Source: Escherichia phage vB_vPM_PD112
Length of the DNA stretch: 64,000 nt
Sequence record: NC_054928.1
Direction: 5' to 3' (one strand)
The position numbers were made by a program, and so were the translations under genes. Each line of letters opens with the position of its first letter. Within the stretch, counting starts at the first letter, position 1. Under the pieces are notes generated by a model. It saw only the letters and a list, made by a program, of their open reading frames with translations, was not told where the DNA came from and did no database searches. Shown here in pieces: positions 17,809 to 61,300 of this stretch.

Positions 17809-18047
17809 AATAATATCCAATTTTTCCAAGCTTCATCAGTAGAATTACAGCGTTTTAGTATAAGATGTCTAGAAACTTTTATGGCATTTGAGCACTTTTT
17901 AATTGAATCATATTTTAATAAAGCGGCACGAATCAATGTTCCTGACCCCATATAACCGTCATTTATGTTATCGGTGCTATGCGCACCGATATATTCCTTT
18001 GAATTAATTATATTTGTTATTTTATAAATTATATAATACCTATGCAT
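17805..18047 (-). pseudogene. truncated GIY-YIG homing endonuclease remnant (segB-like N-terminal half only)
   Basis: YIIYKITNIINSKEYIGAHSTDNINDGYMGSG parallels segB N-terminus; 80 aa, no DNA-binding domain; fills nrdG-nrdD gap. Confidence 0.5.
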
Positions 18048-39348: not shown

Positions 39349-39822
39349 TTATTTGAACGATTTAACGTACTGAATAGAACCTTTACTATTCACGAAAGCG
39401 ATTTTACCATTTTTATTATACATGGTAGCAGTACGCTGATAACCATAAGTTTGTTTACCAGATTGATAACCAACTAATGCGAAATTATCTTCACCCATTT
39501 TATTCTGTTTAGCGCGAATACGTTCATGTCCATGCGCCATAAGAACCTTAGCATCACCAGTTGCAATGGATCGACGAGTTTTTTCATCTTCAACTGTATT
39601 AACAAAATCATCAAATGAATCAAATTTAGCATGAGATTTATTATACAGTTTTCCATCTACTGCATAATTATATCCCTGTACATCCATCTCAACTTCTGTG
39701 CCATCATCTAATACAGCAGTAATTTTCTGTCCTTTTTTAAATTTCAAAAGATCAGTAAAAGATTCAGCAATAATTTGAGAATTAATAGCTGCTTCAGTAA
39801 TAAATTCTTGATATGTTTTCAT
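39349..39822 (-). CDS. capsid internal protein (IP) with N-terminal capsid-targeting sequence
   Basis: N-terminus MKTYQEFITEAA is the T-even IP targeting leader; early promoter upstream; 157 aa. Confidence 0.7.
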   Translation of the reverse strand: MKTYQEFITEAAINSQIIAESFTDLLKFKKGQKITAVLDDGTEVEMDVQGYNYAVDGKLYNKSHAKFDSFDDFVNTVEDEKTRRSIATGDAKVLMAHGHERIRAKQNKMGEDNFALVGYQSGKQTYGYQRTATMYNKNGKIAFVNSKGSIQYVKSFK

Positions 39823-39862
39823 ATGTTTCCTTTAAATGTAAATATTTTAATTAGTAACTGTG

Positions 39863-39895
39863 AATATACTATCACAGTTCTAGGAGAAAGTAAAC
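39863..39895 (-). promoter_or_regulatory. T4-type early promoter
   Basis: Minus-strand read GTTTACtttctcctagaactgtgaTAGTATATTC. Confidence 0.55.
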
Positions 39896-39899
39896 AACT

Positions 39900-40430
<531 letters not shown>

Positions 40431-40886
40431 TTAAAAGAGGTTGTTCATTATTCGGTAAAGTGAAGGACCCATCACATATTGCCACTGAGTACGAGGAATA
40501 AGAGCAAAAGCGTCCATCTCTGGAATCATAACGCCATCTTTATTTTCAAAATAAGACTCGCAATGGCAATTTCTAAACATCTCATGCTCTACTGGAATCG
40601 TATAATAAAATAACTGTAAGTCTTTATTACTAGAATATTTAAATACACCTAGGTCTTCTAGAAGGTCTGGATTATAATTGCTAAAACCAGTCTCTTCTAA
40701 ACATTCTCTTCGTGCTGCATCTAGTACGCTTAAATCAGAATTTTCTACGCGGCCCTTTGGGATATCCCAGCGATGTGCCATCATTCCAGGCTTACGAGAA
40801 CCAGTAACCCGTCCCATGAATAAATCTTTATCTTCGGTCATAAAGATAATACCAGCTGATAGTGTTTTCATTTTAATTTCCTGCAT
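40431..40886 (-). CDS. nudE: Nudix hydrolase
   Basis: 151 aa; Nudix box GRVENSDLSVLDAARRECLEETG. Confidence 0.85.
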   Translation of the reverse strand: MQEIKMKTLSAGIIFMTEDKDLFMGRVTGSRKPGMMAHRWDIPKGRVENSDLSVLDAARRECLEETGFSNYNPDLLEDLGVFKYSSNKDLQLFYYTIPVEHEMFRNCHCESYFENKDGVMIPEMDAFALIPRTQWQYVMGPSLYRIMNNLF

Positions 40887-41356
40887 TCAGTGATAAAGTT
40901 ATTTAAATTTTGAGTATATTTCTTTTCATCAAAAATCTTTTGTTGTCTGCGTAGCCGCCATGGCATTTCAATGAACGTGTACCATATCCCAGATAATATT
41001 GCTGCTGTAAAAATATTAACAAGTATGGTTAAAAGAATCCAATCTCCTATTCTGTCCATTGGATTTTTTATAAAAAAGTAAAATACGAATGATGTCACAG
41101 GAAGACTAATAATATACCACAGAATCATAATCTTATCTGTGAACCAATCAGCGTTCGTTAATTTAGCGCGACCATTATGAATACACACGAATTTATCATC
41201 TGTTGCAGTAGATGGCTTAACTGGTTGATATCCCATTCTAAACTCCCTAATCAGCAAATTTTTCATATCTTCGGAACAGCCATTCCAGTCAACTCTATCA
41301 ACTGGAATGCCATCATCCCCATCATCTAAATCATACCAGCGAGTTTTTAAAATCAT
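40868..41356 (-). CDS. membrane protein, member of F-[IV]-x-[ED]-C-R-K tail family (e.2 position)
   Basis: Two TM segments; C-terminus NNFITECRKLK. Confidence 0.5.
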   Translation of the reverse strand: MILKTRWYDLDDGDDGIPVDRVDWNGCSEDMKNLLIREFRMGYQPVKPSTATDDKFVCIHNGRAKLTNADWFTDKIMILWYIISLPVTSFVFYFFIKNPMDRIGDWILLTILVNIFTAAILSGIWYTFIEMPWRLRRQQKIFDEKKYTQNLNNFITECRKLK

Positions 41357-41715
41357 CTGATTTTCCTACAATCACTTACAAACTCTTTCATTGATTCATT
41401 TTCAATATAAGACATGTAGTTATTATATTCTTTTAATTGTATTTTGTAATCCTTTTTTCTTTGCCAATTTATTTTAAAATTATCATAATGAAAATATAAC
41501 ATGGTACCAAAGAATGAAAATAATGAAATCGCTATAGTAAAACGAAGTTCACTCCAAACCTCTGTTATAATTGCTGAACCATCGATGTTTAAAATAATAC
41601 AGTCAATCATTAATCCAATAAGACTACCCGCAAGAGCTGTAAATACTGATACAGCAAGAATTAATAGTGCCTCAGGAAACGAATATTTGACTTTATTTAG
41701 TTTTGGCTTTTGCAT
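41353..41715 (-). CDS. membrane protein, same tail-motif family (e.3 position)
   Basis: Two TM segments; C-terminus KEFVSDCRKIR. Confidence 0.5.
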   Translation of the reverse strand: MQKPKLNKVKYSFPEALLILAVSVFTALAGSLIGLMIDCIILNIDGSAIITEVWSELRFTIAISLFSFFGTMLYFHYDNFKINWQRKKDYKIQLKEYNNYMSYIENESMKEFVSDCRKIR

Positions 41716-42089
41716 CGTGATTCCTTAACAAATTTCATAATTTCATCAAATTCATACGCAGCAAGTTTAAGCTGATGTTCTTTTTTAATCTTTTTGCACT
41801 GGGCTTTCCACTCACGTACGCGTTTACGATAATGTCTTCCTTGATACCAGTATCCTACCCAATTTACAGGTACTAATAAAAGCGGAATTATTAATGGAAG
41901 AATTAGTGTTGCTCCAAATATTGCACCAGATTCAATATCAGTCATAACGTCTATAACCATTCCAGCAATCAGCAGAATCACAAATGATACAGCTACCACA
42001 GGACCTATTAATACATCAGTAGGAATTAGCTGACGCTTTAGTTCATACTTCACAGGTTTACTTGGAAGGTATAGTGATGGCTTTGACAT
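41697..42089 (-). CDS. membrane protein, same tail-motif family (e.4 position); probable ATG at 42089
   Basis: Two TM segments; C-terminus MKFVKESRCKSQN. Confidence 0.5.
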   Translation of the reverse strand: MSKPSLYLPSKPVKYELKRQLIPTDVLIGPVVAVSFVILLIAGMVIDVMTDIESGAIFGATLILPLIIPLLLVPVNWVGYWYQGRHYRKRVREWKAQCKKIKKEHQLKLAAYEFDEIMKFVKESRCKSQN

Positions 42090-42666
42090 ATTCTCTACAT
42101 TCCTTAACAAATTTTTCTAGTAATAAATCGCTTTCAAAATTAGGATTTTCCACGAATTTATCAAAAAGATCATCAACAATAGTCAAGATATTCTTTTTAC
42201 TAAGAATACGCTTATTTTCATATTTTGTTTCAGAATCAACTATAAGAGTAAAGAAATATTTCTTTCCCTGAAATTTTACCGTAGTATCAATATAGAACAA
42301 ATTTGACTTTTGTAAATTACGTTTAAACCATGCGTCACTTAAACTATAAACGCCAAGATAATCATAATCGTCGTTTAAATAACAAACTGTCCATTCAGGA
42401 GAAATGAAATCAGTAAATTCAACATCAAAATCACACGTCAATGAATGAATTGATTCAATACTTTTAATGAGTATTCCAGGGCGTATTAAAGACTTTTTAC
42501 CTCTATAAAATCTTCCAGAAAGACTTTCATCAGTTTCATACGAAGAGCCCCAATAGTAATTACGTCCTTCTGCCATACGTTTAAGAGCATTTAGTAATTG
42601 GTCTGGAACATCAACTTGTCTTTGGAACTCTTCAAACATTGAATTGAAATCATTTTGCATTCTCAT
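42058..42666 (-). CDS. soluble protein carrying the same C-terminal motif (e.5 position)
   Basis: 202 aa; C-terminus EKFVKECREYVKAITIPSK. Confidence 0.5.
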   Translation of the reverse strand: MRMQNDFNSMFEEFQRQVDVPDQLLNALKRMAEGRNYYWGSSYETDESLSGRFYRGKKSLIRPGILIKSIESIHSLTCDFDVEFTDFISPEWTVCYLNDDYDYLGVYSLSDAWFKRNLQKSNLFYIDTTVKFQGKKYFFTLIVDSETKYENKRILSKKNILTIVDDLFDKFVENPNFESDLLLEKFVKECREYVKAITIPSK

Positions 42667-45379: not shown

Positions 45380-46045
45380 TTAAAATTTCATTTTTCGACC
45401 TTTAAACCATCCTTCTGGAATTGGGTCAGTTTTCTTAATACGTTTAGAAACTTTTTCATCTAATGAATGAATCCACATCATGCCAAATTGGGAATTCTTT
45501 TCACCTTGTTGGTGTTTATTTCTGGCGTGAGATTCTTTCATTTTATTAATAGTTTCAGGAGTATGATGCTTATTTAAAAATCTGCTATTATTTAAAAATT
45601 TTTCCCTGTATTCAGGAGTTGACCACAAGCGTTTAAATACATTTGAACCATTTTTACGATATTTTTCTTGAAGTAAAATATCATTTTTAAAACGTGACTT
45701 AAACGATTTAGCTCCTTTTAAACTAGCGTCTTTCTTCTGATTTAGCATCTCAGGAATATTTATATGATCCCATCCACCTTCACCGCCAAGTTTTAAATTA
45801 TACACATCAGGTCTATTTAAAAACTCTTCTGTGACAATATTTTTCTCGGCTTCAAGCATAGATTCTTTATCGTCAAAATATTCTAATATTTCTTTAGAAA
45901 AATTTTCTATACCATACCTGTCTTGGGCTCTTTTTAATAATTTACCAGAACCCATATATCCATCATCTAAATTTTCGGTAGAATGCACACCAATATAAAT
46001 TTTATTATTAATTTTATTTGTTATTTTATAAGCGTAATGGAACAT
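45380..46045 (-). CDS. segB: GIY-YIG homing endonuclease SegB
   Basis: 221 aa; YKITNKINNKIYIGVHST...GYMGSG; inside the tRNA cluster as in T4. Confidence 0.85.
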   Translation of the reverse strand: MFHYAYKITNKINNKIYIGVHSTENLDDGYMGSGKLLKRAQDRYGIENFSKEILEYFDDKESMLEAEKNIVTEEFLNRPDVYNLKLGGEGGWDHINIPEMLNQKKDASLKGAKSFKSRFKNDILLQEKYRKNGSNVFKRLWSTPEYREKFLNNSRFLNKHHTPETINKMKESHARNKHQQGEKNSQFGMMWIHSLDEKVSKRIKKTDPIPEGWFKGRKMKF

Positions 46046-51948: not shown

Positions 51949-51956
51949 TATAAATA
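51949..51956 (+). promoter_or_regulatory. late promoter TATAAATA for gene 53
   Basis: Exact TATAAATA about 30 bp upstream of the gene 53 ATG. Confidence 0.6.
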
Positions 51957-51984: not shown

Positions 51985-52575
51985 ATGCTCTTTACATTTT
52001 TTGATCCGATTGAATATGCGGCCAAAACGGTGAATAAAAACGCGCCGACTATTCCTATGACAGATATTTTTAGAAACTATAAAGACTATTTTAAACGCGC
52101 TCTTGCGGGATATCGCTTACGTACTTATTATATCAAAGGTTCACCACGCCCGGAAGAATTAGCAAATACTATATATGGAAATCCGCAGTTGTATTGGGTT
52201 TTATTGATGTGTAATGATAATTATGATCCGTATTATGGATGGATTACTTCGCAAGAAGCTGCTTATCAAGCATCTATACAAAAATACAAAAACGTAGGTG
52301 GAGACCAAATAGTATATCATGTGAATGAGAATGGTGAAAAATTTTATAATTTAATATCATACGATGATAATCCATATGTTTGGTATGACAAAGGCGATAA
52401 AGCTAGAAAATATCCTCAATATGAAGGAGCACTTGCTGCGGTCGATACGTATGAAGCTGCTGTTCTTGAAAATGAAAAACTTCGTCAAATAAAAATAATA
52501 GCAAAATCAGACATCAATTCATTTATGAACGACCTTATACGTATAATGGAGAAATCTTATGGAAATGATAAGTAA
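51985..52575 (+). CDS. 53: baseplate wedge protein gp53
   Basis: 196 aa, T4 gp53 length. Confidence 0.9.
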   Translation: MLFTFFDPIEYAAKTVNKNAPTIPMTDIFRNYKDYFKRALAGYRLRTYYIKGSPRPEELANTIYGNPQLYWVLLMCNDNYDPYYGWITSQEAAYQASIQKYKNVGGDQIVYHVNENGEKFYNLISYDDNPYVWYDKGDKARKYPQYEGALAAVDTYEAAVLENEKLRQIKIIAKSDINSFMNDLIRIMEKSYGNDK

Positions 52576-54331
52576 TAACCTTAATTGGTTTGTTGGTGTT
52601 GTTGAAGATAGAATGGACCCATTAAAATTAGGTCGTGTTCGTGTTCGTGTGGTTGGTCTGCATCCACCTCAAAGAGCGCAAGGCGATGTAATGGGTATTC
52701 CAACCGATAAATTACCATGGATGTCAGTTATTCAACCTATAACTTCTGCAGCAATGTCTGGAATTGGAGGTTCTGTTACAGGACCAGTAGAAGGAACTAG
52801 AGTTTATGGTCATTTTTTAGACAAATGGAAAACTAACGGAATTGTCCTTGGCACGTATGGTGGGATAGTTCGCGAAAAACCTAATAGACTTGAAGGATTT
52901 TCTGACCCAACTGGGCAGTATCCTAGACGTCTAGGAAATGATACTAACGTATTAAACCAAGGCGGAGAAGTAGGATATGATTCGTCTTCTAATATTATCC
53001 AAGATAGCAATCTAGACACTGCGATAAATCCTGATGATAGACCATTATCAGAAATTCCAACTGATGATAATCCAAATATGTCAATGGCTGAAATGCTTCG
53101 CCGTGATGAAGGATTAAGACTAAAAGTTTATTGGGATACAGAAGGATATCCGACAATTGGTATTGGTCATCTTATCATGAAGCAGCCAGTTCGTGATATG
53201 GCCCAAATTAATAAAGTTTTATCAAAACAAGTTGGTCGTGAAATTACCGGAAATCCAGGTTCTATTACAATGGAAGAAGCGGTAACTTTATTTGAACGTG
53301 ATTTAGCTGATATGCAACGTGACATTAAATCACATTCTAAAGTTGGCCCAGTTTGGAAAGCAGTTAATCGTTCTCGTCAAATGGCATTAGAAAATATGGC
53401 ATTTCAGATGGGTGTTGGCGGTGTAGCTAAATTTAACACAATGTTAACTGCTATGTTAGCCGGAGATTGGGAAAAAGCATATAAAGCCGGTCGTGATTCA
53501 TTGTGGTATCAACAAACAAAAGGCCGTGCATCCCGTGTTACCATGATTATTCTTACAGGCAATTTGGAATCATACGGTATTGAAGTGAAAACGCCAGCTA
53601 GGTCTTTGTCTGCAATGGCTGCTACTGTAGCAAAGTCTTCTGACCCGGCTGACCCTCCTATTCCGAATGATTCGAGAATTTTATTCAAAGAACCTGTTTC
53701 TTCATATAAAGGTGAGTATCCGTATGTTCACACAATGGAAACTGAAAGCGGTCATATTCAGGAATTTGACGATACCCCGGGACAAGAACGATACAGATTA
53801 GTTCATCCGACTGGAACATATGAGGAAGTATCACCGTCAGGAAGAAGAACAAGAAAAACTGTTGATAATTTGTATGATATAACAAATGCTGATGGTAATT
53901 TTTTGGTAGCCGGTGATAAAAAGACTAACGTCGGTGGATCAGAAATTTATTACAACATGGATAATCGTCTCCACCAAATAGATGGAAGCAATACAATATT
54001 TGTGCGTGGCGACGAAACGAAAACTGTTGAAGGTAATGGAACTATCCTAGTTAAAGGTAATGTTAAAGTAGTTATTCAAGGAACAGCAGATATAACTGTT
54101 GAACAGGAAGCATACATAACTGTTGAAAAAGACACGACTGTTAATGTTAACCAAAACGCAGACATAAGTGTTAAAAATAAAGCAACTGTTAATGCTGAAA
54201 ATATGGATGTCAACGTTGAGCAAGATTTAAATTTTTCAGCGACAAATATTAATTTAAGTGCATCTAATACTGTTCATATGGATGGCGGGGTTCTTTCTAA
54301 AGTATCAGGTGGAAACGTACAGGTTGGTTAA
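52559..54331 (+). CDS. 5: baseplate hub / tail lysozyme gp5 with divergent C-terminal beta-helix
   Basis: N-terminal OB and lysozyme domains match T4 gp5; 590 aa versus 575 in T4 and a different C-terminal sequence. Confidence 0.9.
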   Translation: MEMISNNLNWFVGVVEDRMDPLKLGRVRVRVVGLHPPQRAQGDVMGIPTDKLPWMSVIQPITSAAMSGIGGSVTGPVEGTRVYGHFLDKWKTNGIVLGTYGGIVREKPNRLEGFSDPTGQYPRRLGNDTNVLNQGGEVGYDSSSNIIQDSNLDTAINPDDRPLSEIPTDDNPNMSMAEMLRRDEGLRLKVYWDTEGYPTIGIGHLIMKQPVRDMAQINKVLSKQVGREITGNPGSITMEEAVTLFERDLADMQRDIKSHSKVGPVWKAVNRSRQMALENMAFQMGVGGVAKFNTMLTAMLAGDWEKAYKAGRDSLWYQQTKGRASRVTMIILTGNLESYGIEVKTPARSLSAMAATVAKSSDPADPPIPNDSRILFKEPVSSYKGEYPYVHTMETESGHIQEFDDTPGQERYRLVHPTGTYEEVSPSGRRTRKTVDNLYDITNADGNFLVAGDKKTNVGGSEIYYNMDNRLHQIDGSNTIFVRGDETKTVEGNGTILVKGNVKVVIQGTADITVEQEAYITVEKDTTVNVNQNADISVKNKATVNAENMDVNVEQDLNFSATNINLSASNTVHMDGGVLSKVSGGNVQVG

Positions 54332-54332
54332 T

Positions 54333-56369
54333 ATGAATTATAACGAAATTGTTGATGAATTAGTTGATACCATACAATCAGCTTGTTCAATTATTCCCGA
54401 AGGTTATTATAGACGAGTTAAATGGGAATTATACAATCCCAATAAAGAAATGATTCAACCCGATAATGGGGTTGAATGGGACACTGAAATTATTAAATTA
54501 GATACCCATCTTTACACCGAAAATCCATTTGGTCATTCTTCTGATACATTTACTGAATCATCTGATGGAGAAACCCAAACTGGTGTTTTTTGTCATAAAA
54601 TCGGCGTGTATTTTCCAACTCAAACTGCGTTAGAAGATTACGTTGAACAAATTGGTGCAACTTTACTTCCAGGTAATACTTGGTATGGTGCTGATTTATC
54701 GAAACGTGAATTTTTTAAAACTGAAATTGAATATGATATGTATCGCATTGAAAATCGCGGAGGTACATGGCATCATACGGGTCCTAGAATAGATGCTAGG
54801 ACAATGATCGGTGTTAACAATGACTATACAATGTATGTTAACTTTAACGGTTTAGGAGATTATAGAAGAGCATATTTAAAATATTATGAAGATAAACCAT
54901 GCACATATGTCGGTTTAACACTAAATTTAAATATAGATACATCAATTCCCGGTATTCCTTATTCACCTCCATCAATTATTGGAGAGCTTCCACTTAATGC
55001 AATTTCATGCGTTAATTTTACTGCCCAATTTCCATACAATGGCTTAACATCTGCAATTATTGAGGCTTGGAACACCTCAAGAGATTCATTTAAACTATAT
55101 TGGGATATGTTGCCTGGTATGCCGGCAATTAGCGGAAGTGATTTTGAAAAATATTTTAATTCGGCATATACACATTTATCTGTAGCAATGGAAGAGCTTG
55201 GAAATTCGGCAATTGCCATGTGTCAATATGTTCAGCAACAAGCCTTTATGGTTTTTAAAAATTCTGTTTCACAAGTTCTAAATATTGTCGGTGGCGGATG
55301 GGATTTATTAAAAAGTTTTTTACCTAAAATAACAATAATGGGCATATCTATTGATATTGAAGATTTATGTACATCAACAGATGGTGTTCAAAAATTGAAG
55401 GAAACCTTTGAAAATTTTAATCTGGAAGATACTATTAGTTCAATTTATTCTGCAATGGGTTCTGCATATGACTATTCTATAGAACGCGTTAAAATGTATT
55501 CGCGGGATTTAGTTGATGCAATAACAGATTTATATGATTGGGCCTGGTCAAAATTAATGATGGCCGGTGTCGCTTTATCAAAATTATGTGTTGATTTAGC
55601 ACAAATCTGGAGCATGCCACCAATTATTCCAAATCCAGTGTGGTCTGTTATCACTTTAGTGAAGGAAATGATGAAACAAATTCCTCCATTAGATATGATT
55701 ATGTCAGGTAATTTTCCTGGATTTACTGCTTCTGATGTATATCAGATGGTTATGTCTATCGTATCTGAAAAAATTAAACAAGTTTATACTAAAATAGAAT
55801 CATTAAAAACCCAAGCATTGGATGTATGGAATGAAATTAAACTAAAAACACAGGAATATAAAAAGCAAACGATTGAATTTAAACAATATTTATCAGGAAT
55901 GGCTGAAAAGGTTGAAGATGAAATAACTATAGCAAAAAAGAAAGCGTTACAAGAAGCTGAATCCGCTTTAAATGTTTTAAAGGATAAATATAACAGTATT
56001 AAAGACTTGATAAAAAATAAACAGATTTCTGTGTCTGATGTATTAGATTTAGCTTTGACTGAATTTCGAAAAATTCCATTAATTTCACAAATGGAATCAT
56101 TATTATCTTTAGCTGGAGCATCTATCGATGATATAATGAAAGTATATGAAAATAGCGTTACTAAAGCAAAATCATTATATCACGAATTCACCGATGGCGC
56201 TCGGTCAATGAAAGATCTATGCAAATCATTATACAATCAAATTTCGACTTTATGTTTGAGTAAGGTTGTGCAATGGATTAATAAAATGCTTGGAATATTT
56301 GGATTAAGTATTACATTTCCAACAGTATCAATATGCATTCCATGCTTAAAAACTCCTATGAGGAATTAA
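54333..56369 (+). CDS. unassigned large late-strand protein (678 aa) between genes 5 and 6
   Basis: ATG 2 nt after gp5 stop; stop 1 nt before gene 6 ATG; internal hydrophobic segments and a Lys/Glu-rich coiled-coil; no match to any T4 baseplate protein I know. Confidence 0.6.
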   Translation: MNYNEIVDELVDTIQSACSIIPEGYYRRVKWELYNPNKEMIQPDNGVEWDTEIIKLDTHLYTENPFGHSSDTFTESSDGETQTGVFCHKIGVYFPTQTALEDYVEQIGATLLPGNTWYGADLSKREFFKTEIEYDMYRIENRGGTWHHTGPRIDARTMIGVNNDYTMYVNFNGLGDYRRAYLKYYEDKPCTYVGLTLNLNIDTSIPGIPYSPPSIIGELPLNAISCVNFTAQFPYNGLTSAIIEAWNTSRDSFKLYWDMLPGMPAISGSDFEKYFNSAYTHLSVAMEELGNSAIAMCQYVQQQAFMVFKNSVSQVLNIVGGGWDLLKSFLPKITIMGISIDIEDLCTSTDGVQKLKETFENFNLEDTISSIYSAMGSAYDYSIERVKMYSRDLVDAITDLYDWAWSKLMMAGVALSKLCVDLAQIWSMPPIIPNPVWSVITLVKEMMKQIPPLDMIMSGNFPGFTASDVYQMVMSIVSEKIKQVYTKIESLKTQALDVWNEIKLKTQEYKKQTIEFKQYLSGMAEKVEDEITIAKKKALQEAESALNVLKDKYNSIKDLIKNKQISVSDVLDLALTEFRKIPLISQMESLLSLAGASIDDIMKVYENSVTKAKSLYHEFTDGARSMKDLCKSLYNQISTLCLSKVVQWINKMLGIFGLSITFPTVSICIPCLKTPMRN

Positions 56370-56370
56370 A

Positions 56371-58350
56371 ATGACAACTCCTGTAAATTATCAATTAACA
56401 AGAACAGCAAATGCTATTCCCGAGATATTCGTCGGGGGTACATTTGCTGAAATAAAACAAAACCTCATTGAATGGCTTAATGGCCAAAATGAATTTTTGG
56501 ATTATGATTTTGAAGGCTCAAGATTAAACGTTCTGTGTGACCTTTTAGCTTATAATACATTATACATTCAGCAGTTTGGTAATGCTGCCGTATATGAAAG
56601 CTTTATGCGTACTGCTAATTTGCGTAGTTCAGTAGTTCAAGCTGCACAAGATAATGGATATTTACCTACTTCAAAATCAGCTGCTCAAACTGAAATTATG
56701 CTAACTTGCACAGACGCATTGAATAGAAATTACATTACTATTCCTCGCGGTACTCGCTTTTTAGCATATGCAAAAGATACTTCCGTTAATCCTTATAACT
56801 TTGTATCTACCGAAGATGTTATTGCTATTCGCGATAAAAATAACCAATATTTTCCGCGTTTAAAATTAGCCCAGGGACGTATAGTAAGAACTGAAATCAT
56901 TTATGATAAATTAACACCTATTATCATTTATGACAAAAATATAGATAGAAACCAAGTTAAGCTGTATGTTGATGGAGCAGAATGGATTAACTGGACAAGA
57001 AAGTCAATGGTTCATGCTGGTTCTACATCAACAATTTACTACATGCGTGAAACTATTGATGGAAATACTGAATTTTATTTTGGTGAAGGTGAGATTTCCG
57101 TTAATGCGGCAGAAGGAGCATTGACCGCTAATTATATTGGAGGTCTTAAGCCTACCCAGAACTCTACGATTGTTATTGAGTACATCAGTACTAACGGCGC
57201 GGATGCGAATGGCGCAGTCGGATTTTCATACGCAGATACATTAACAAATATAACTGTCATCAATATTAATGAAAATCCAAACGATGACCCAGATTTTGTT
57301 GGGGCAGATGGCGGCGGTGATCCAGAAGATATTGAGCGTATTCGCGAATTGGGTACTATTAAACGTGAAACCCAGCAACGATGCGTAACTGCGACTGACT
57401 ATGATACATTCGTTTCAGAGAGATTTGGTTCTATTATTCAAGCAGTTCAGACTTTCACTGATTCTACTAAACCTGGTTATGCATTTATTGCTGCTAAACC
57501 TAAATCAGGTCTGTATTTAACTACTGTACAGCGTGAAGATATTAAAAATTATCTCAAAGACTATAATTTAGCTCCTATTACACCATCAATTATTTCTCCT
57601 AATTACCTTTTTATTAAGACTAATTTAAAAGTCACATATGCTTTAAATAAGCTGCAAGAATCCGAACAGTGGCTCGAAGGTCAAATAATTGATAAAATTG
57701 ATCGTTATTATACCGAAGATGTAGAAATTTTTAATTCATCTTTCGCTAAATCTAAGATGTTGACATATGTAGATGATGCAGATCATTCTATCATTGGCTC
57801 ATCCGCGACAATTCAAATGGTACGTGAAGTACAAAACTTCTATAAAACGCCTGAAGCGGGTATTAAATACAATAATCAAATAAAAGATCGTTCTATGGAA
57901 TCTAATACGTTTTCATTTAATTCCGGACGAAAGGTTGTAAATCCTGATACTGGCTTAGAAGAAGATGTATTATATGACGTTCGTATAGTATCAACAGACC
58001 GAGATTCTAAAGGAATTGGTAAAGTTATTATTGGTCCATTTGCTTCTGGCGATGTTACAGAAAATGAAAACATTCAGCCGTATACAGGCAACGATTTTAA
58101 CAAATTAGCAAATTCTGATGGACGCGACAAATACTATGTTATCGGTGAAATAAATTATCCAGCTGATGTTATTTACTGGAATATCGCTAAAATTAATTTA
58201 ACATCTGAAAAATTTGAAGTTCAGACTATTGAATTATATTCTGACCCAACCGATGATGTTATCTTTACTCGCGATGGTTCACTGATTGTATTTGAAAATG
58301 ACTTACGTCCACAATACTTAACTATCGATTTGGAGCCTATATCACAATGA
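56371..58350 (+). CDS. 6: baseplate wedge protein gp6
   Basis: 659 aa (T4 gp6 is 660), synteny. Confidence 0.9.
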   Translation: MTTPVNYQLTRTANAIPEIFVGGTFAEIKQNLIEWLNGQNEFLDYDFEGSRLNVLCDLLAYNTLYIQQFGNAAVYESFMRTANLRSSVVQAAQDNGYLPTSKSAAQTEIMLTCTDALNRNYITIPRGTRFLAYAKDTSVNPYNFVSTEDVIAIRDKNNQYFPRLKLAQGRIVRTEIIYDKLTPIIIYDKNIDRNQVKLYVDGAEWINWTRKSMVHAGSTSTIYYMRETIDGNTEFYFGEGEISVNAAEGALTANYIGGLKPTQNSTIVIEYISTNGADANGAVGFSYADTLTNITVININENPNDDPDFVGADGGGDPEDIERIRELGTIKRETQQRCVTATDYDTFVSERFGSIIQAVQTFTDSTKPGYAFIAAKPKSGLYLTTVQREDIKNYLKDYNLAPITPSIISPNYLFIKTNLKVTYALNKLQESEQWLEGQIIDKIDRYYTEDVEIFNSSFAKSKMLTYVDDADHSIIGSSATIQMVREVQNFYKTPEAGIKYNNQIKDRSMESNTFSFNSGRKVVNPDTGLEEDVLYDVRIVSTDRDSKGIGKVIIGPFASGDVTENENIQPYTGNDFNKLANSDGRDKYYVIGEINYPADVIYWNIAKINLTSEKFEVQTIELYSDPTDDVIFTRDGSLIVFENDLRPQYLTIDLEPISQ

Positions 58351-61300
58351 CAGTAAAAGCACCTTCAGTCACTAGTCTCAGAATTTCCAAGTTATCCGCA
58401 AATCAGGTGCAAGTACGCTGGGATGACGTTGGTGCTAATTTCTACTATTTTGTAGAAATCGCTGAGACAAAAACAAACTCGGGGGAAAATCTCCCGAGTA
58501 ATCAATACAGATGGATTAACTTAGGATATACTGCAAATAACAGCTTCTTTTTTGATAATGCTAATCCATTGACATCGTACATTATTAGAGTAGCTACAGC
58601 TGCGCAGGATTTTGAGCAGTCTGATTGGATTTATACCGAAGAGTTTGAAACTTTTGCTACAAACGCTTATACATTTCAAAACATGATTGAAATGCAATTA
58701 GCTAATAAATTCATTCAGGAAAAATTTACTCTTAATAATTCTGATTATGTCAATTTTAATAATGACACTATAATGGCTGCATTGATGAATGAATCATTTC
58801 AATTCAGCCCGTCATATGTTGACGTTTCATCAATAAGTAATTTTATTATTGGTGAAAATGAGTATCATGAAATACAAGGTTCTATTCAACAAGTATGTAA
58901 GGATATTAACCGAGTTTATTTGATGGAATCAGAAGGGATTCTATATCTTTTTGAGCGTTATCAACCTGTAGTTAAAGTATCTAACGATAAAGGACAAACC
59001 TGGAAAGCTGTAAAGCTCTTCAATGACCGCGTAGGATATCCTTTATCTAAGACTGTATATTACCAATCTGCAAACACAACATACGTTCTAGGATACGACA
59101 AGATTTTCTATGGCCGCAAATCTACTGATGTTAGATGGTCAGCTGATGATGTCAGATTTAGTTCGCAGGATATAACATTTGCTAAACTTGGCGACCAATT
59201 ACATCTAGGATTTGATGTAGAAATTTTTGCCACTTACGCGACTTTGCCAGCTAATGTATACCGCATTGCAGAAGCTATTACTTGCACCGATGATTACATT
59301 TACGTTGTCGCCAGAGACAAAGTTAGATACATAAAAACGAGTAATGCACCTATAGATTCTGATCCATTATCTCCGACATATTCGGAAAGACTTTTTGAAC
59401 CTGATACAATGACTATAACTGGAAATCCTAAAGCAGTATGTTATAAAATGGATTCTATCGGTGATAAAGTTTTCGCTCTTATTATCGGAGAAGTTGAAAC
59501 ATTAAATGCTAATCCTAGAACATCAAAAATAATTGATTCTGCCGATAAAGGAATATATGTTTTAAATCATGCCACGAAAACATGGAAAAGAGTTTTTGGC
59601 AACACTGAAGAAGAAAGAAGACGTATTCAACCTGGATATGCGAATATGTCAACTGATGGTAAATTAGTTTCTCTGTCTTCGAGTAATTTTAAATTTTTAA
59701 GTGATAACATTGTTAATGACCCTGAAACTGCAGCGAAATATCAGTTAATCGGTGCTGTTAAATATGAATTTCCTCGTGAATGGCTAGCTGATAAGCATTA
59801 TCATATGATGGCATTTATAGCAGATGAAAAATCTGATTGGGAAACTTTTACACCTCAGCCGATGAAATACTACGCTGAACCATTCTTTAACTGGTCTAAA
59901 AAATCTAACACACGCTGTTGGATAAACAACTCTGACAGAGCTGTAGTAGTTTATGCTGATTTAAAATACACCAAAGTTATAGAAAATATTCCGGAAACAT
60001 CACCGGATAGATTAGTTCATGAATACTGGGATGATGGTGATTGTACGATAGTAATGCCAAATGTTAAATTCACGGGATTTAAAAAATACGCGTCTGGGAT
60101 GCTTTTTTATAAGTCTTCTGGTGAAATAATTTCTTACTATGATTTTAACTATCGAGTGAGAGACACTGTCGAAATTATTTGGAAGCCAACTGAAGTGTTT
60201 TTAAAAGCATTTTTACAAAACCAAGAGCATGAGACTCCTTGGTCACCAGAAGAAGAGCGTGGACTAGCTGACCCCGATTTAAGACCATTAATTGGCACAA
60301 TGATGCCTGATTCTTATTTGCTACAGGATTCGAATTTTGAAGCATTTTGCGAAGCATATATTCAGTATCTTTCTGATGGATATGGAACTCAGTATAACAA
60401 TTTACGAAATTTAATTCGTAACAAATATCCACGAGAAGAGCATGCATGGGAATATTTGTGGTCAGAGATATATAAAAGAAACATTTATTTAAATGCTGAC
60501 AAACGTGATGCTGTTGCAAGATTTTTCGAATCACGCAGCTATGATTTTTATTCTACTAAAGGAATTGAAGCATCATACAAATTTCTTTTTAAAGTTCTTT
60601 ATAATGAAGAAGTTGAAATTGAAATTGAATCTGGGGCTGGTACTGAATATGATATAATCATTCAATCTGATTCTTTGACTGAAGACTTAGTAGGACAAAC
60701 GATTTATACAGCTACAGGAAGATGTAATGTTACTTATATAGAAAGAAGTTATTCTAACGGTAAATTGCAATGGACCGTAACTATTCATAATCTTTTGGGA
60801 AGATTAATTGCCGGTCAAGAAGTTAAAGCAGAAAGACTCCCTAGTTTCGAAGGCGAAATTATTCGCGGGGTTAAAGGAAAGGATTTGCTTCAAAATAATA
60901 TAGACTATATTAATAGAAGTCGATCATATTATGTAATGAAAATTAAATCCAATTTACCTTCTTCCCGCTGGAAATCTGACGTTATTCGTTTTGTTCATCC
61001 AGTAGGATTTGGATTTATAGCAATTACTCTTTTAACAATGTTTATTAATGTCGGTTTAACTCTTAAACATACAGAGACTATAATTAATAAATACAAAAAC
61101 TATAAATGGGATTCTGGATTGCCTACTGAATATGCTGATAGAGTAGCTAAATTAACTCCAACCGGTGAAATTGAGCATGATTCAGTAACAGGCGAAGCAA
61201 TTTATGAACCTGGCCCAATGGCTGGTGTAGAATATCCTCTTCCTGATGACTATAATGCTGAAAATAATAATTCAATATTTCAAGGTCAATTGCCATCTGA

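Follow-up and report, generated by a model that had tools for sequence, protein, structure and literature searches.

A Recombinant Gene 5 with a Donor-Type Tip and an Adjacent Gene for a Putative Large Spike-Tip Protein in Escherichia Phage vB_vPM_PD112

Introduction

The gp5 protein (baseplate central spike and tail lysozyme) of Escherichia phage vB_vPM_PD112 raises the question of how a spike protein that resembles that of T4 over its enzymatic part can have a C-terminal tip unlike that of T4, and whether this end belongs together with the gene that follows it. The locus was analysed in a stretch of 64,000 nucleotides of sequence record NC_054928.1 (hereafter, the window), in which all positions are counted from its first letter. 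A preliminary description of this stretch had read the N-terminal OB and lysozyme domains as those of T4 gp5, had judged that the last 100 residues or so, from about position 53900 onward, do not match the T4 C-terminus, and had connected this change, in a protein of 590 rather than 575 residues, with a replacement of the downstream gene, since PAAR or other tip proteins dock on this end.

Spikes capped by something other than a PAAR protein have been described in T4 relatives. The phages RB43, RB16, and Lw1 do not have gene 5.4, and orf205w, which encodes a protein of approximately 690 amino acids, sits where genes 5.1–5.4 would be (PMC12407873, Mattenberger et al., bioRxiv 2025). A 17.7 Å cryo-EM map of the RB43 spike displays a larger density at the tip; an AlphaFold model of orf205w, itself of low confidence, can be placed in this density, and the assignment is tentative (PMC12407873). 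Moreover, in an AF3 model of the gp202 and gp203 proteins of Klebsiella phage Helios, the last β-strand of gp5 lies against the base of a large protein (PMC13611949, Viruses 2026;18:942).

The T4-Type Body of gp5

The gene 5 ORF (52559–54331, plus strand) encodes 590 amino acids, versus 575 in T4 and in the T4-like phage ime09, and occupies the position expected in a late baseplate operon, flanked by gene 53 upstream (51985–52575; gp53, PF11246) and by gp6 downstream. In Pfam searches with the protein, Gp5_OB (PF06714) matches residues 33–173 (E 2.3e-65) and Phage_lysozyme (PF00959) matches residues 183–310, with additional matches to PDB chains of T4 lysozyme, while Gp5_C is found at residues 484–506 and the matches to Gp5_C and Gp5_trimer_C reach no further than residue 540. 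Codons 1–502 (52559–54065, plus strand), which comprise the OB domain, the lysozyme domain, and the proximal β-helix, are of T4 type, with 96% DNA identity to T4.

This likeness stops abruptly. BLASTP against gp5 of ime09 displays only scattered substitutions through residue 502 (..GNGTILVKGNV) and no similarity beyond, a multiple alignment with T4 gp5 breaks after the same residue, and in approximately 500 Tequatrovirus records the match is confined to nucleotides 1–1507 of gene 5. The 73 C-terminal residues of T4 type (..SSGQYTIDGSRIDIG) are absent from the window gp5, which past residue 502 has only a weak octad resemblance to them. The Pfam matches and the near-identity to residue 502 thus agree with the T4-like OB and lysozyme domains of the preliminary description, the ORF length agrees with its 590 residues, and the alignments with T4 and other Tequatrovirus gp5 sequences, which lose similarity from residue 503 on, confirm the different C-terminus that it described. 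However, the divergent span, although correctly placed at the C-terminus, had been drawn too wide, since it covers 88 residues (54066–54331) and not about 100, and the first 166 nucleotides of the interval that had been proposed (53900–54065) are ordinary T4 sequence.

The Donor-Type Tip

Residues 503–590 and the stop codon (54066–54331, plus strand) constitute a tip of donor type, with 11 octads that end in VSGGNVQVG and form a putative docking platform. This tip is closer to that of the Dhakavirus Bp7 (81–84% DNA identity and 90% amino acid identity) than to that of T4 (29–52% DNA identity). Counted from N478, the octad region of the window gp5 comprises 14 octads plus 1 residue, versus 12 plus 2 in T4 and 13 plus 1 in RB43, and the new 88-residue end is 15 residues, or approximately two strands, longer than the T4 end, which at the usual strand spacing would extend the helix by roughly 10 Å over that of T4.

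In the analysis of β-helix repeats, the octads stay in register up to the final residue, with a lag-8 hydrophobicity autocorrelation of 0.43. Beyond residue 509, Gln, Lys, or Asn stand where the VxG pattern of T4 has its glycine (VEQE, VEKD, VNQN, and VKNK), and the tip contains none of the three tryptophans found in that of T4. From these features of the sequence, we infer that the new end is still a triple-stranded β-helix of trimeric geometry. The final strand VSGGNVQVG (the last 9 residues) is the best-conserved segment of the tip among 13 homologues, as expected of a docking platform. An identical C-terminus (100%) is found in 8 database records, and homologues are present in 214 records; thus, the difference from T4 is due neither to chance nor to sequencing error.

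Cassette Boundaries and Crossovers

The gp5 tip and the gene for a 678-aa protein that follows it form one block, a cassette of approximately 2.3 kb that extends from 54066 to about 56382. In blastn against T4, 51400–54065 matches at 96% and 56361–58600 at 95.5%, with no match between them, and 90-nt bins register a drop in T4 identity at 54068, from 0.94 through 0.52 to 0.29, and a return from 0.21 to 0.93 at 56361. The identity to Bp7, in 90-nt bins as well, is 44–77% over the rest of gene 5, climbs from about 0.6–0.7 to 0.81–0.84 on entering the tip, and is approximately 0.7 across most of the downstream gene. At the protein level, the gp5 body, the tip, and the 678-aa ORF are 62–67%, 90%, and 74% identical to their counterparts in Bp7 and 73–83%, 74–75%, and 60–61% identical to those in KM16 (Moonvirus); the body resembles KM16 more than Bp7 and the tip resembles Bp7 more than KM16, as expected of a chimera.

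The junction alignment delimits the left crossover to the interval AATGTTA (54059–54065, plus strand), which covers codons N501–V502 and the first base of codon 503 and is identical in the window, T4, and Bp7. To the left of it, through 54058, the window has the sequence of T4 and not that of Bp7, and from 54066 onward it is of Bp7 type and differs from T4. This interval lies in a 24-nt repeat, GTTAAAGGTAATGTTA, which corresponds to the last octad (VKGN) conserved between both types of gene 5. The right crossover is placed at about 56380–56383, in codons 4–5 of gene 6. The first four codons of this gene (MTTP; 56371–56382, plus strand) are of donor type and read AGGAATTAAAATGACAACTCCT as in Bp7, without the Asn3 codon of T4, and the sequence is of T4 type from GTAAATTAT onward. 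The rest of gene 6 (baseplate wedge; 56383–58350 of a gene that spans 56371–58350, plus strand) is the T4-type right flank, with 95.5% DNA identity to T4. As its first four codons are of donor type, gp6 is slightly chimeric too; it begins MTTPVNY and has 659 amino acids, versus MANTPVNY and 660 amino acids in T4, and the ribosome-binding region is also of donor type.

The cassette takes the place of the 73 terminal codons of T4 gene 5 and of genes 5.1, segC, 5.3, and 5.4 (PAAR), and supplies 88 codons and one gene for a 678-aa protein. Judging from these alignments, gene 5 is a recombinant, in which the tip and the downstream ORF come in one block from a double crossover.

The left crossover is located near an annotated replication feature of T4. 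oriE is reported to include evenly spaced 12-nt iterons and is annotated at T4 79355 (NC_000866), inside gene 5, which corresponds to about 53955 of the window, approximately 110 nt upstream of the breakpoint. In T4, a 24-nt repeat with the core GTTGAAGGTAAT occurs at least six times (79402–79569) and encodes VEGN/VKGN octads, and we take these 24-nt-spaced repeats to be the reported 12-nt iterons of oriE. A comparison of 53955–54192 with T4 79355–79569 indicates that the window keeps only two GTTGAAGGTAAT copies, at 54026 and 54050, that the cassette removes the distal three to four, and that the left crossover falls within the repeat array. A minus-strand ORF (53685–53885) lies at the position of T4 repEA (T4 79085–79237), in the T4-type part of gene 5 and outside the cassette.

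Nothing at the gene 5–6 locus corresponds to T4 SegC, a GIY-YIG homing endonuclease. This protein does match elsewhere in the window, at 45770–46042 (minus strand; 55% identity, E 2e-31) and at 17910–18044 (minus strand; 51% identity, E 7e-12), and the former region corresponds to a “homing endonuclease” that the annotation of phage SG1 places inside its cluster of tRNA genes. In addition, the large terminase gene of SG1 is annotated in two pieces (39544–40437 and 41011–42396) with an “endonuclease” CDS between them (40424–41023), which looks like the insertion of a mobile endonuclease or an intron.

Carriers and Origin of the Cassette

The T4-type part of gene 5 has matches in 515 records, and only 8 of these contain the cassette, namely BYEP01, sutha, SG1, JEP6, F26, G8, and two RefSeq duplicates. 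A false C-terminus could result from a frameshift, from mis-assembly, or from a chimeric contig, but such an artefact is so improbable here that it was rejected: no point in its support was found, these GenBank/RefSeq records come from several countries and contain the same 590-aa gene and cassette at 97.4–99.1% identity, and the octad periodicity remains intact in the reading frame up to the stop codon.

In a comparison of the window with the six carriers (n = 7; 54026–56441 region, with gp53/gp5 and gp6 as flanks), pairs of sequences differ by a mean of 0.37% within the cassette and of 3.4–3.8% in both flanks, segregating sites amount to 9.9 per kb versus 75–79 per kb, and the tract of low diversity stops within approximately 60 nt of both junctions. 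Diversity is thus about tenfold lower in the cassette than on either side of it, as would follow from a single recent acquisition. These sequence data suggest that it was followed by spread into diverged backbones or by later reshuffling of the flanks, and possibly by selection.

The same figures bear on the idea that the end of gp5 diverged in place, by rapid C-terminal evolution within Tequatrovirus, for example under diversifying selection on the end that contacts the membrane, and without recombination. Tips that contact receptors or membranes often evolve fast, and the similarity between the gp5 proteins of RB43 and T4 drops sharply toward the C-terminus (PMC12407873). Nevertheless, divergence in place is highly improbable and was rejected, since the boundaries are step-like and not gradual (94% to 52% to 29% within 180 nt), the likeness to the donor lineage is concentrated in the tip (81–84% DNA identity to Dhakavirus versus 44–77% for the rest of gene 5), and the neighbouring genes were replaced in the same block, whose diversity is ten times below that of the flanks.

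The closest relative of the ORF in a protein-database search (Logan assemblies) has 72–73% identity and is encoded on a Dhakavirus-like contig that contains the tip of Bp7, and a search for a closer donor among the nearest relatives in Logan assemblies, P0002 and P0003, yielded gp5 tips with 90% and 82% identity. Dhakavirus is not the direct donor, because its ORF is too divergent, and, as the nearest sampled relative is only Dhakavirus-like (tip 90%, ORF 72–74%), the donor is unsampled. By sequence relationship, the donor is a T4-like phage outside Tequatrovirus with its nearest sampled relatives in Dhakavirus. No paper mentioning this chimera was found, and the papers on F26 and BYEP01 are silent on the spike.

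The 678-aa Downstream Protein

In place of T4 genes 5.1, segC, 5.3, and 5.4, the window contains a gene (54333–56369, plus strand) for a 678-aa homologue of RB43 orf205w, a putative large spike-tip protein. The match has 42% identity, covers residues 1–673 (99% of the length), and falls at RB43 108265–110325, which is RB43ORF205w. The protein has no Pfam hit, a profile search against PDB gave 0 hits, Foldseek found nothing in PDB below E 0.09, and the search against BFVD recovered only members of the same family. In 5.8 billion proteins, the family comprises 65 clusters at 90% identity, nearly all of them with proteins of 660–720 amino acids, and the source names of the clusters are all T4-like phages, except for one entry labelled Enterobacter.

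A confident AF2 model obtained with 60 homologues (pLDDT 87, pTM 0.80) displays a mixed α/β region to about residue 280, a helical bundle at residues 285–655, and a C-terminal strand at residues 664–673; the longest single helices comprise 55 residues and measure approximately 80 Å. Residues 621–660 are among the best-conserved segments of the protein. Residues 652–672 (GIFGLSITFPTVSICIPCL), which overlap the end of that segment, are the most hydrophobic ones (Kyte–Doolittle 19-residue mean of 1.76) and are predicted to form a β-strand and not a helix; this hydrophobic stretch could be a docking patch or a membrane-active element.

Linkage of Tip and Large Protein, Loss of PAAR, and Expression Context

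The 92-aa tip and the 678-aa protein, used as tblastn queries against 50,697 phage records, were each found in 214 records, and the two sets, compared by organism and host, have the same breakdown. The identities of both decrease in parallel, from 90/72% to 45/42%: after the Tequatrovirus carriers (tip 100%, ORF 99.4–99.9%) come Dhakavirus (90% and 72–74%), KM16 (74–75% and 60–61%), Proteus phages (about 58% and about 55%), and the RB43 group (41–45% and 42%). The match of the RB43 group to the 92-aa tip is full-length (approximately 45%, E 1e-17, tblastn) and shares the ending GG(N/T)VQVG. The T4-type tip and gp5.4, in turn, are each present in more than 1,200 records, with nearly equal counts per enterobacterial host genus. 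The linkage between tip and ORF could partly be a matter of adjacency and not of docking specificity.

Searches by tblastn of the 64-kb window and of the whole SG1 genome (169.8 kb) found no homologues of gp5.4, gp5.1, or gp5.3, with a best E of 3.5 for the PAAR protein gp5.4 across both; such searches would miss a highly divergent PAAR elsewhere in the genome. As a positive control, the three queries recover the ime09 genes at 94–100% identity, with 100% for gp5.4. Relocation of the PAAR gene to another part of the genome was rejected on the same grounds, as tblastn gave no match in the window or in SG1.

The genes of the locus are tightly packed: the stop codon of gene 5 is separated by 1 nt from the start of the ORF, the stop of the ORF is separated by 1 nt from the start of gene 6, and genes 53 and 5 overlap. 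The late-promoter motif TATAAATA lies upstream of gene 53 (51949–51956, plus strand), with no further copy on the plus strand until 62475; since the motif occurs in the window as often as expected by chance, the argument lies in where this copy sits and not in the number of copies. This position and the tight packing fit co-expression of the genes in a late baseplate operon, as judged from their arrangement. A scan of 53700–54600 for promoters and terminators remained below the shuffled expectation and revealed nothing of note.

The association between the tip change and the replacement of the downstream gene, which the preliminary description had regarded as consistent, is thus upheld by the single recombinant block, the matching breakdowns of the 214 records, the loss of PAAR, and the tip density of RB43, the last of which bears on docking in this phage only by analogy. 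The functional idea behind it agrees with the view in the literature.

Proposed Mechanism

In the most probable reading of the chimeric gp5 and its cassette, the last strands of donor type would serve as a platform for one copy of the 678-aa protein, replacing the PAAR cap. Codons 503–590 arrived as the left part of the cassette, which removed 5.1, segC, 5.3, and 5.4. The left crossover took place in the VKGN octad, the last DNA homology between both types of gene 5, and the right one in the first codons of gene 6; the exchange probably begins 88 codons before the stop because the DNA homology ends there. The β-helix, lengthened by approximately two strands with respect to T4, would present its invariant last strand GGNVQVG as a flat platform, on which one molecule of the large protein, itself mostly helical, would dock instead of PAAR, thereby giving a tip of RB43 type. 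Both this docking and any effect on envelope penetration are proposals.

The tip swap might also be needless for docking. The 88 codons would then have been carried along from the nearest homology, at codon 502, and a tip of T4 type would serve the large protein equally as a docking site. The location of the left crossover in the last conserved octad, after which the T4-type and donor-type DNA diverge, is in line with such hitch-hiking, and so is the fairly generic nature of the spike–tip interface, a hydrophobic patch zipped by main-chain hydrogen bonds, given that foreign PAAR proteins have been grafted onto T4 gp5-β (PMC12407873). However, hitch-hiking seems unlikely, since the tip type and the large protein occur together across lineages that are 40–45% identical, with no mixed combination among the 214 records whose breakdowns were compared, and since conservation within the tip is highest in its last strand. 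Attempts to produce the RB43 tip protein with gp5-β failed (PMC12407873), which also argues against it, albeit weakly, as expression fails for many reasons.

Beyond the platform function of the donor-type strands, a more speculative extension, which we consider rather doubtful, is that the tip and the large protein are a self-contained and exchangeable membrane-penetration module that recently entered Tequatrovirus and spread through diverged backbones by altering the way in which the envelope is crossed. Dependence on the LPS core or on PpiD is described for the T4 gp5–gp5.4 tip. A helix of approximately 80 Å, as in the model, could span the periplasm and reach or insert into the inner membrane via the hydrophobic and conserved C-terminus, and the module might lift this dependence.

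Significance and Comparison with Known Spike Systems

As this natural chimera shows, the final 88 residues of gp5 and the gene next to them can be moved together onto a genuine T4-type spike and yield viable phages, and the putative docking determinant is narrowed to residues 503–590. Moreover, the carriers and the approximately 500 Tequatroviruses of PAAR type offer a near-isogenic comparison within the best-studied phage genus, which could be used to probe the role of a large helical tip in envelope penetration, host range, and fitness.

With respect to the gp5–gp5.4 spike of T4 (PDB 4KU0, 1K28, and 5IV5), the OB domain, the lysozyme domain, and the β-helix to residue 502 are nearly identical in the window, and in T4, as presumably in the window, a monomeric cap sits on the flat end of a trimeric β-helix. 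In contrast to T4, the last 73 residues are replaced by 88 unrelated ones without Trp and without the VxG glycines, the PAAR gene is absent, and the putative cap is approximately seven times larger than PAAR and has neither a PAAR motif nor a match to the PAAR fold. Among sampled phages, Dhakavirus (Bp7, SP18, and WG01) comes closest to the cassette, with an equal number of octads, a tip with 90% amino acid and 81–84% DNA identity, and an ORF with 72–74% identity, whereas the gp5 body of the window is only 62–67% identical to that of Dhakavirus.

The RB43-type spike (RB43 orf204 and orf205w, RB16, Lw1, and Helios) has the common gene order 53–5–large ORF–6, and it shares with the window a gp5 that ends in GG(N/T)VQVG, a protein of approximately 680–690 amino acids directly after it that begins as α/β and continues as helical, the absence of 5.1 and 5.4, and a β-helix, predicted in the window, that is longer than that of T4. 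Over their last 60 residues, the gp5 proteins of RB43 and T4 share only 15% identity, and the RB43 helix is one strand longer than that of T4 (PMC12407873). Unlike in RB43, a Pseudotevenvirus, the gp5 body and the genomic background of the window are of T4 type (96% DNA identity), and the tip and the ORF are 41–45% and 42% identical to those of RB43, with a predicted helix one octad longer. Furthermore, in comparison with RB43, the module of the window is a recent introgression with mapped crossovers. To our knowledge, the RB43-type tip is the only non-PAAR spike cap described among T4 relatives. Thus, the kind of spike tip found in this locus is already known, and what is specific to it is the double crossover that placed the module in Tequatrovirus.
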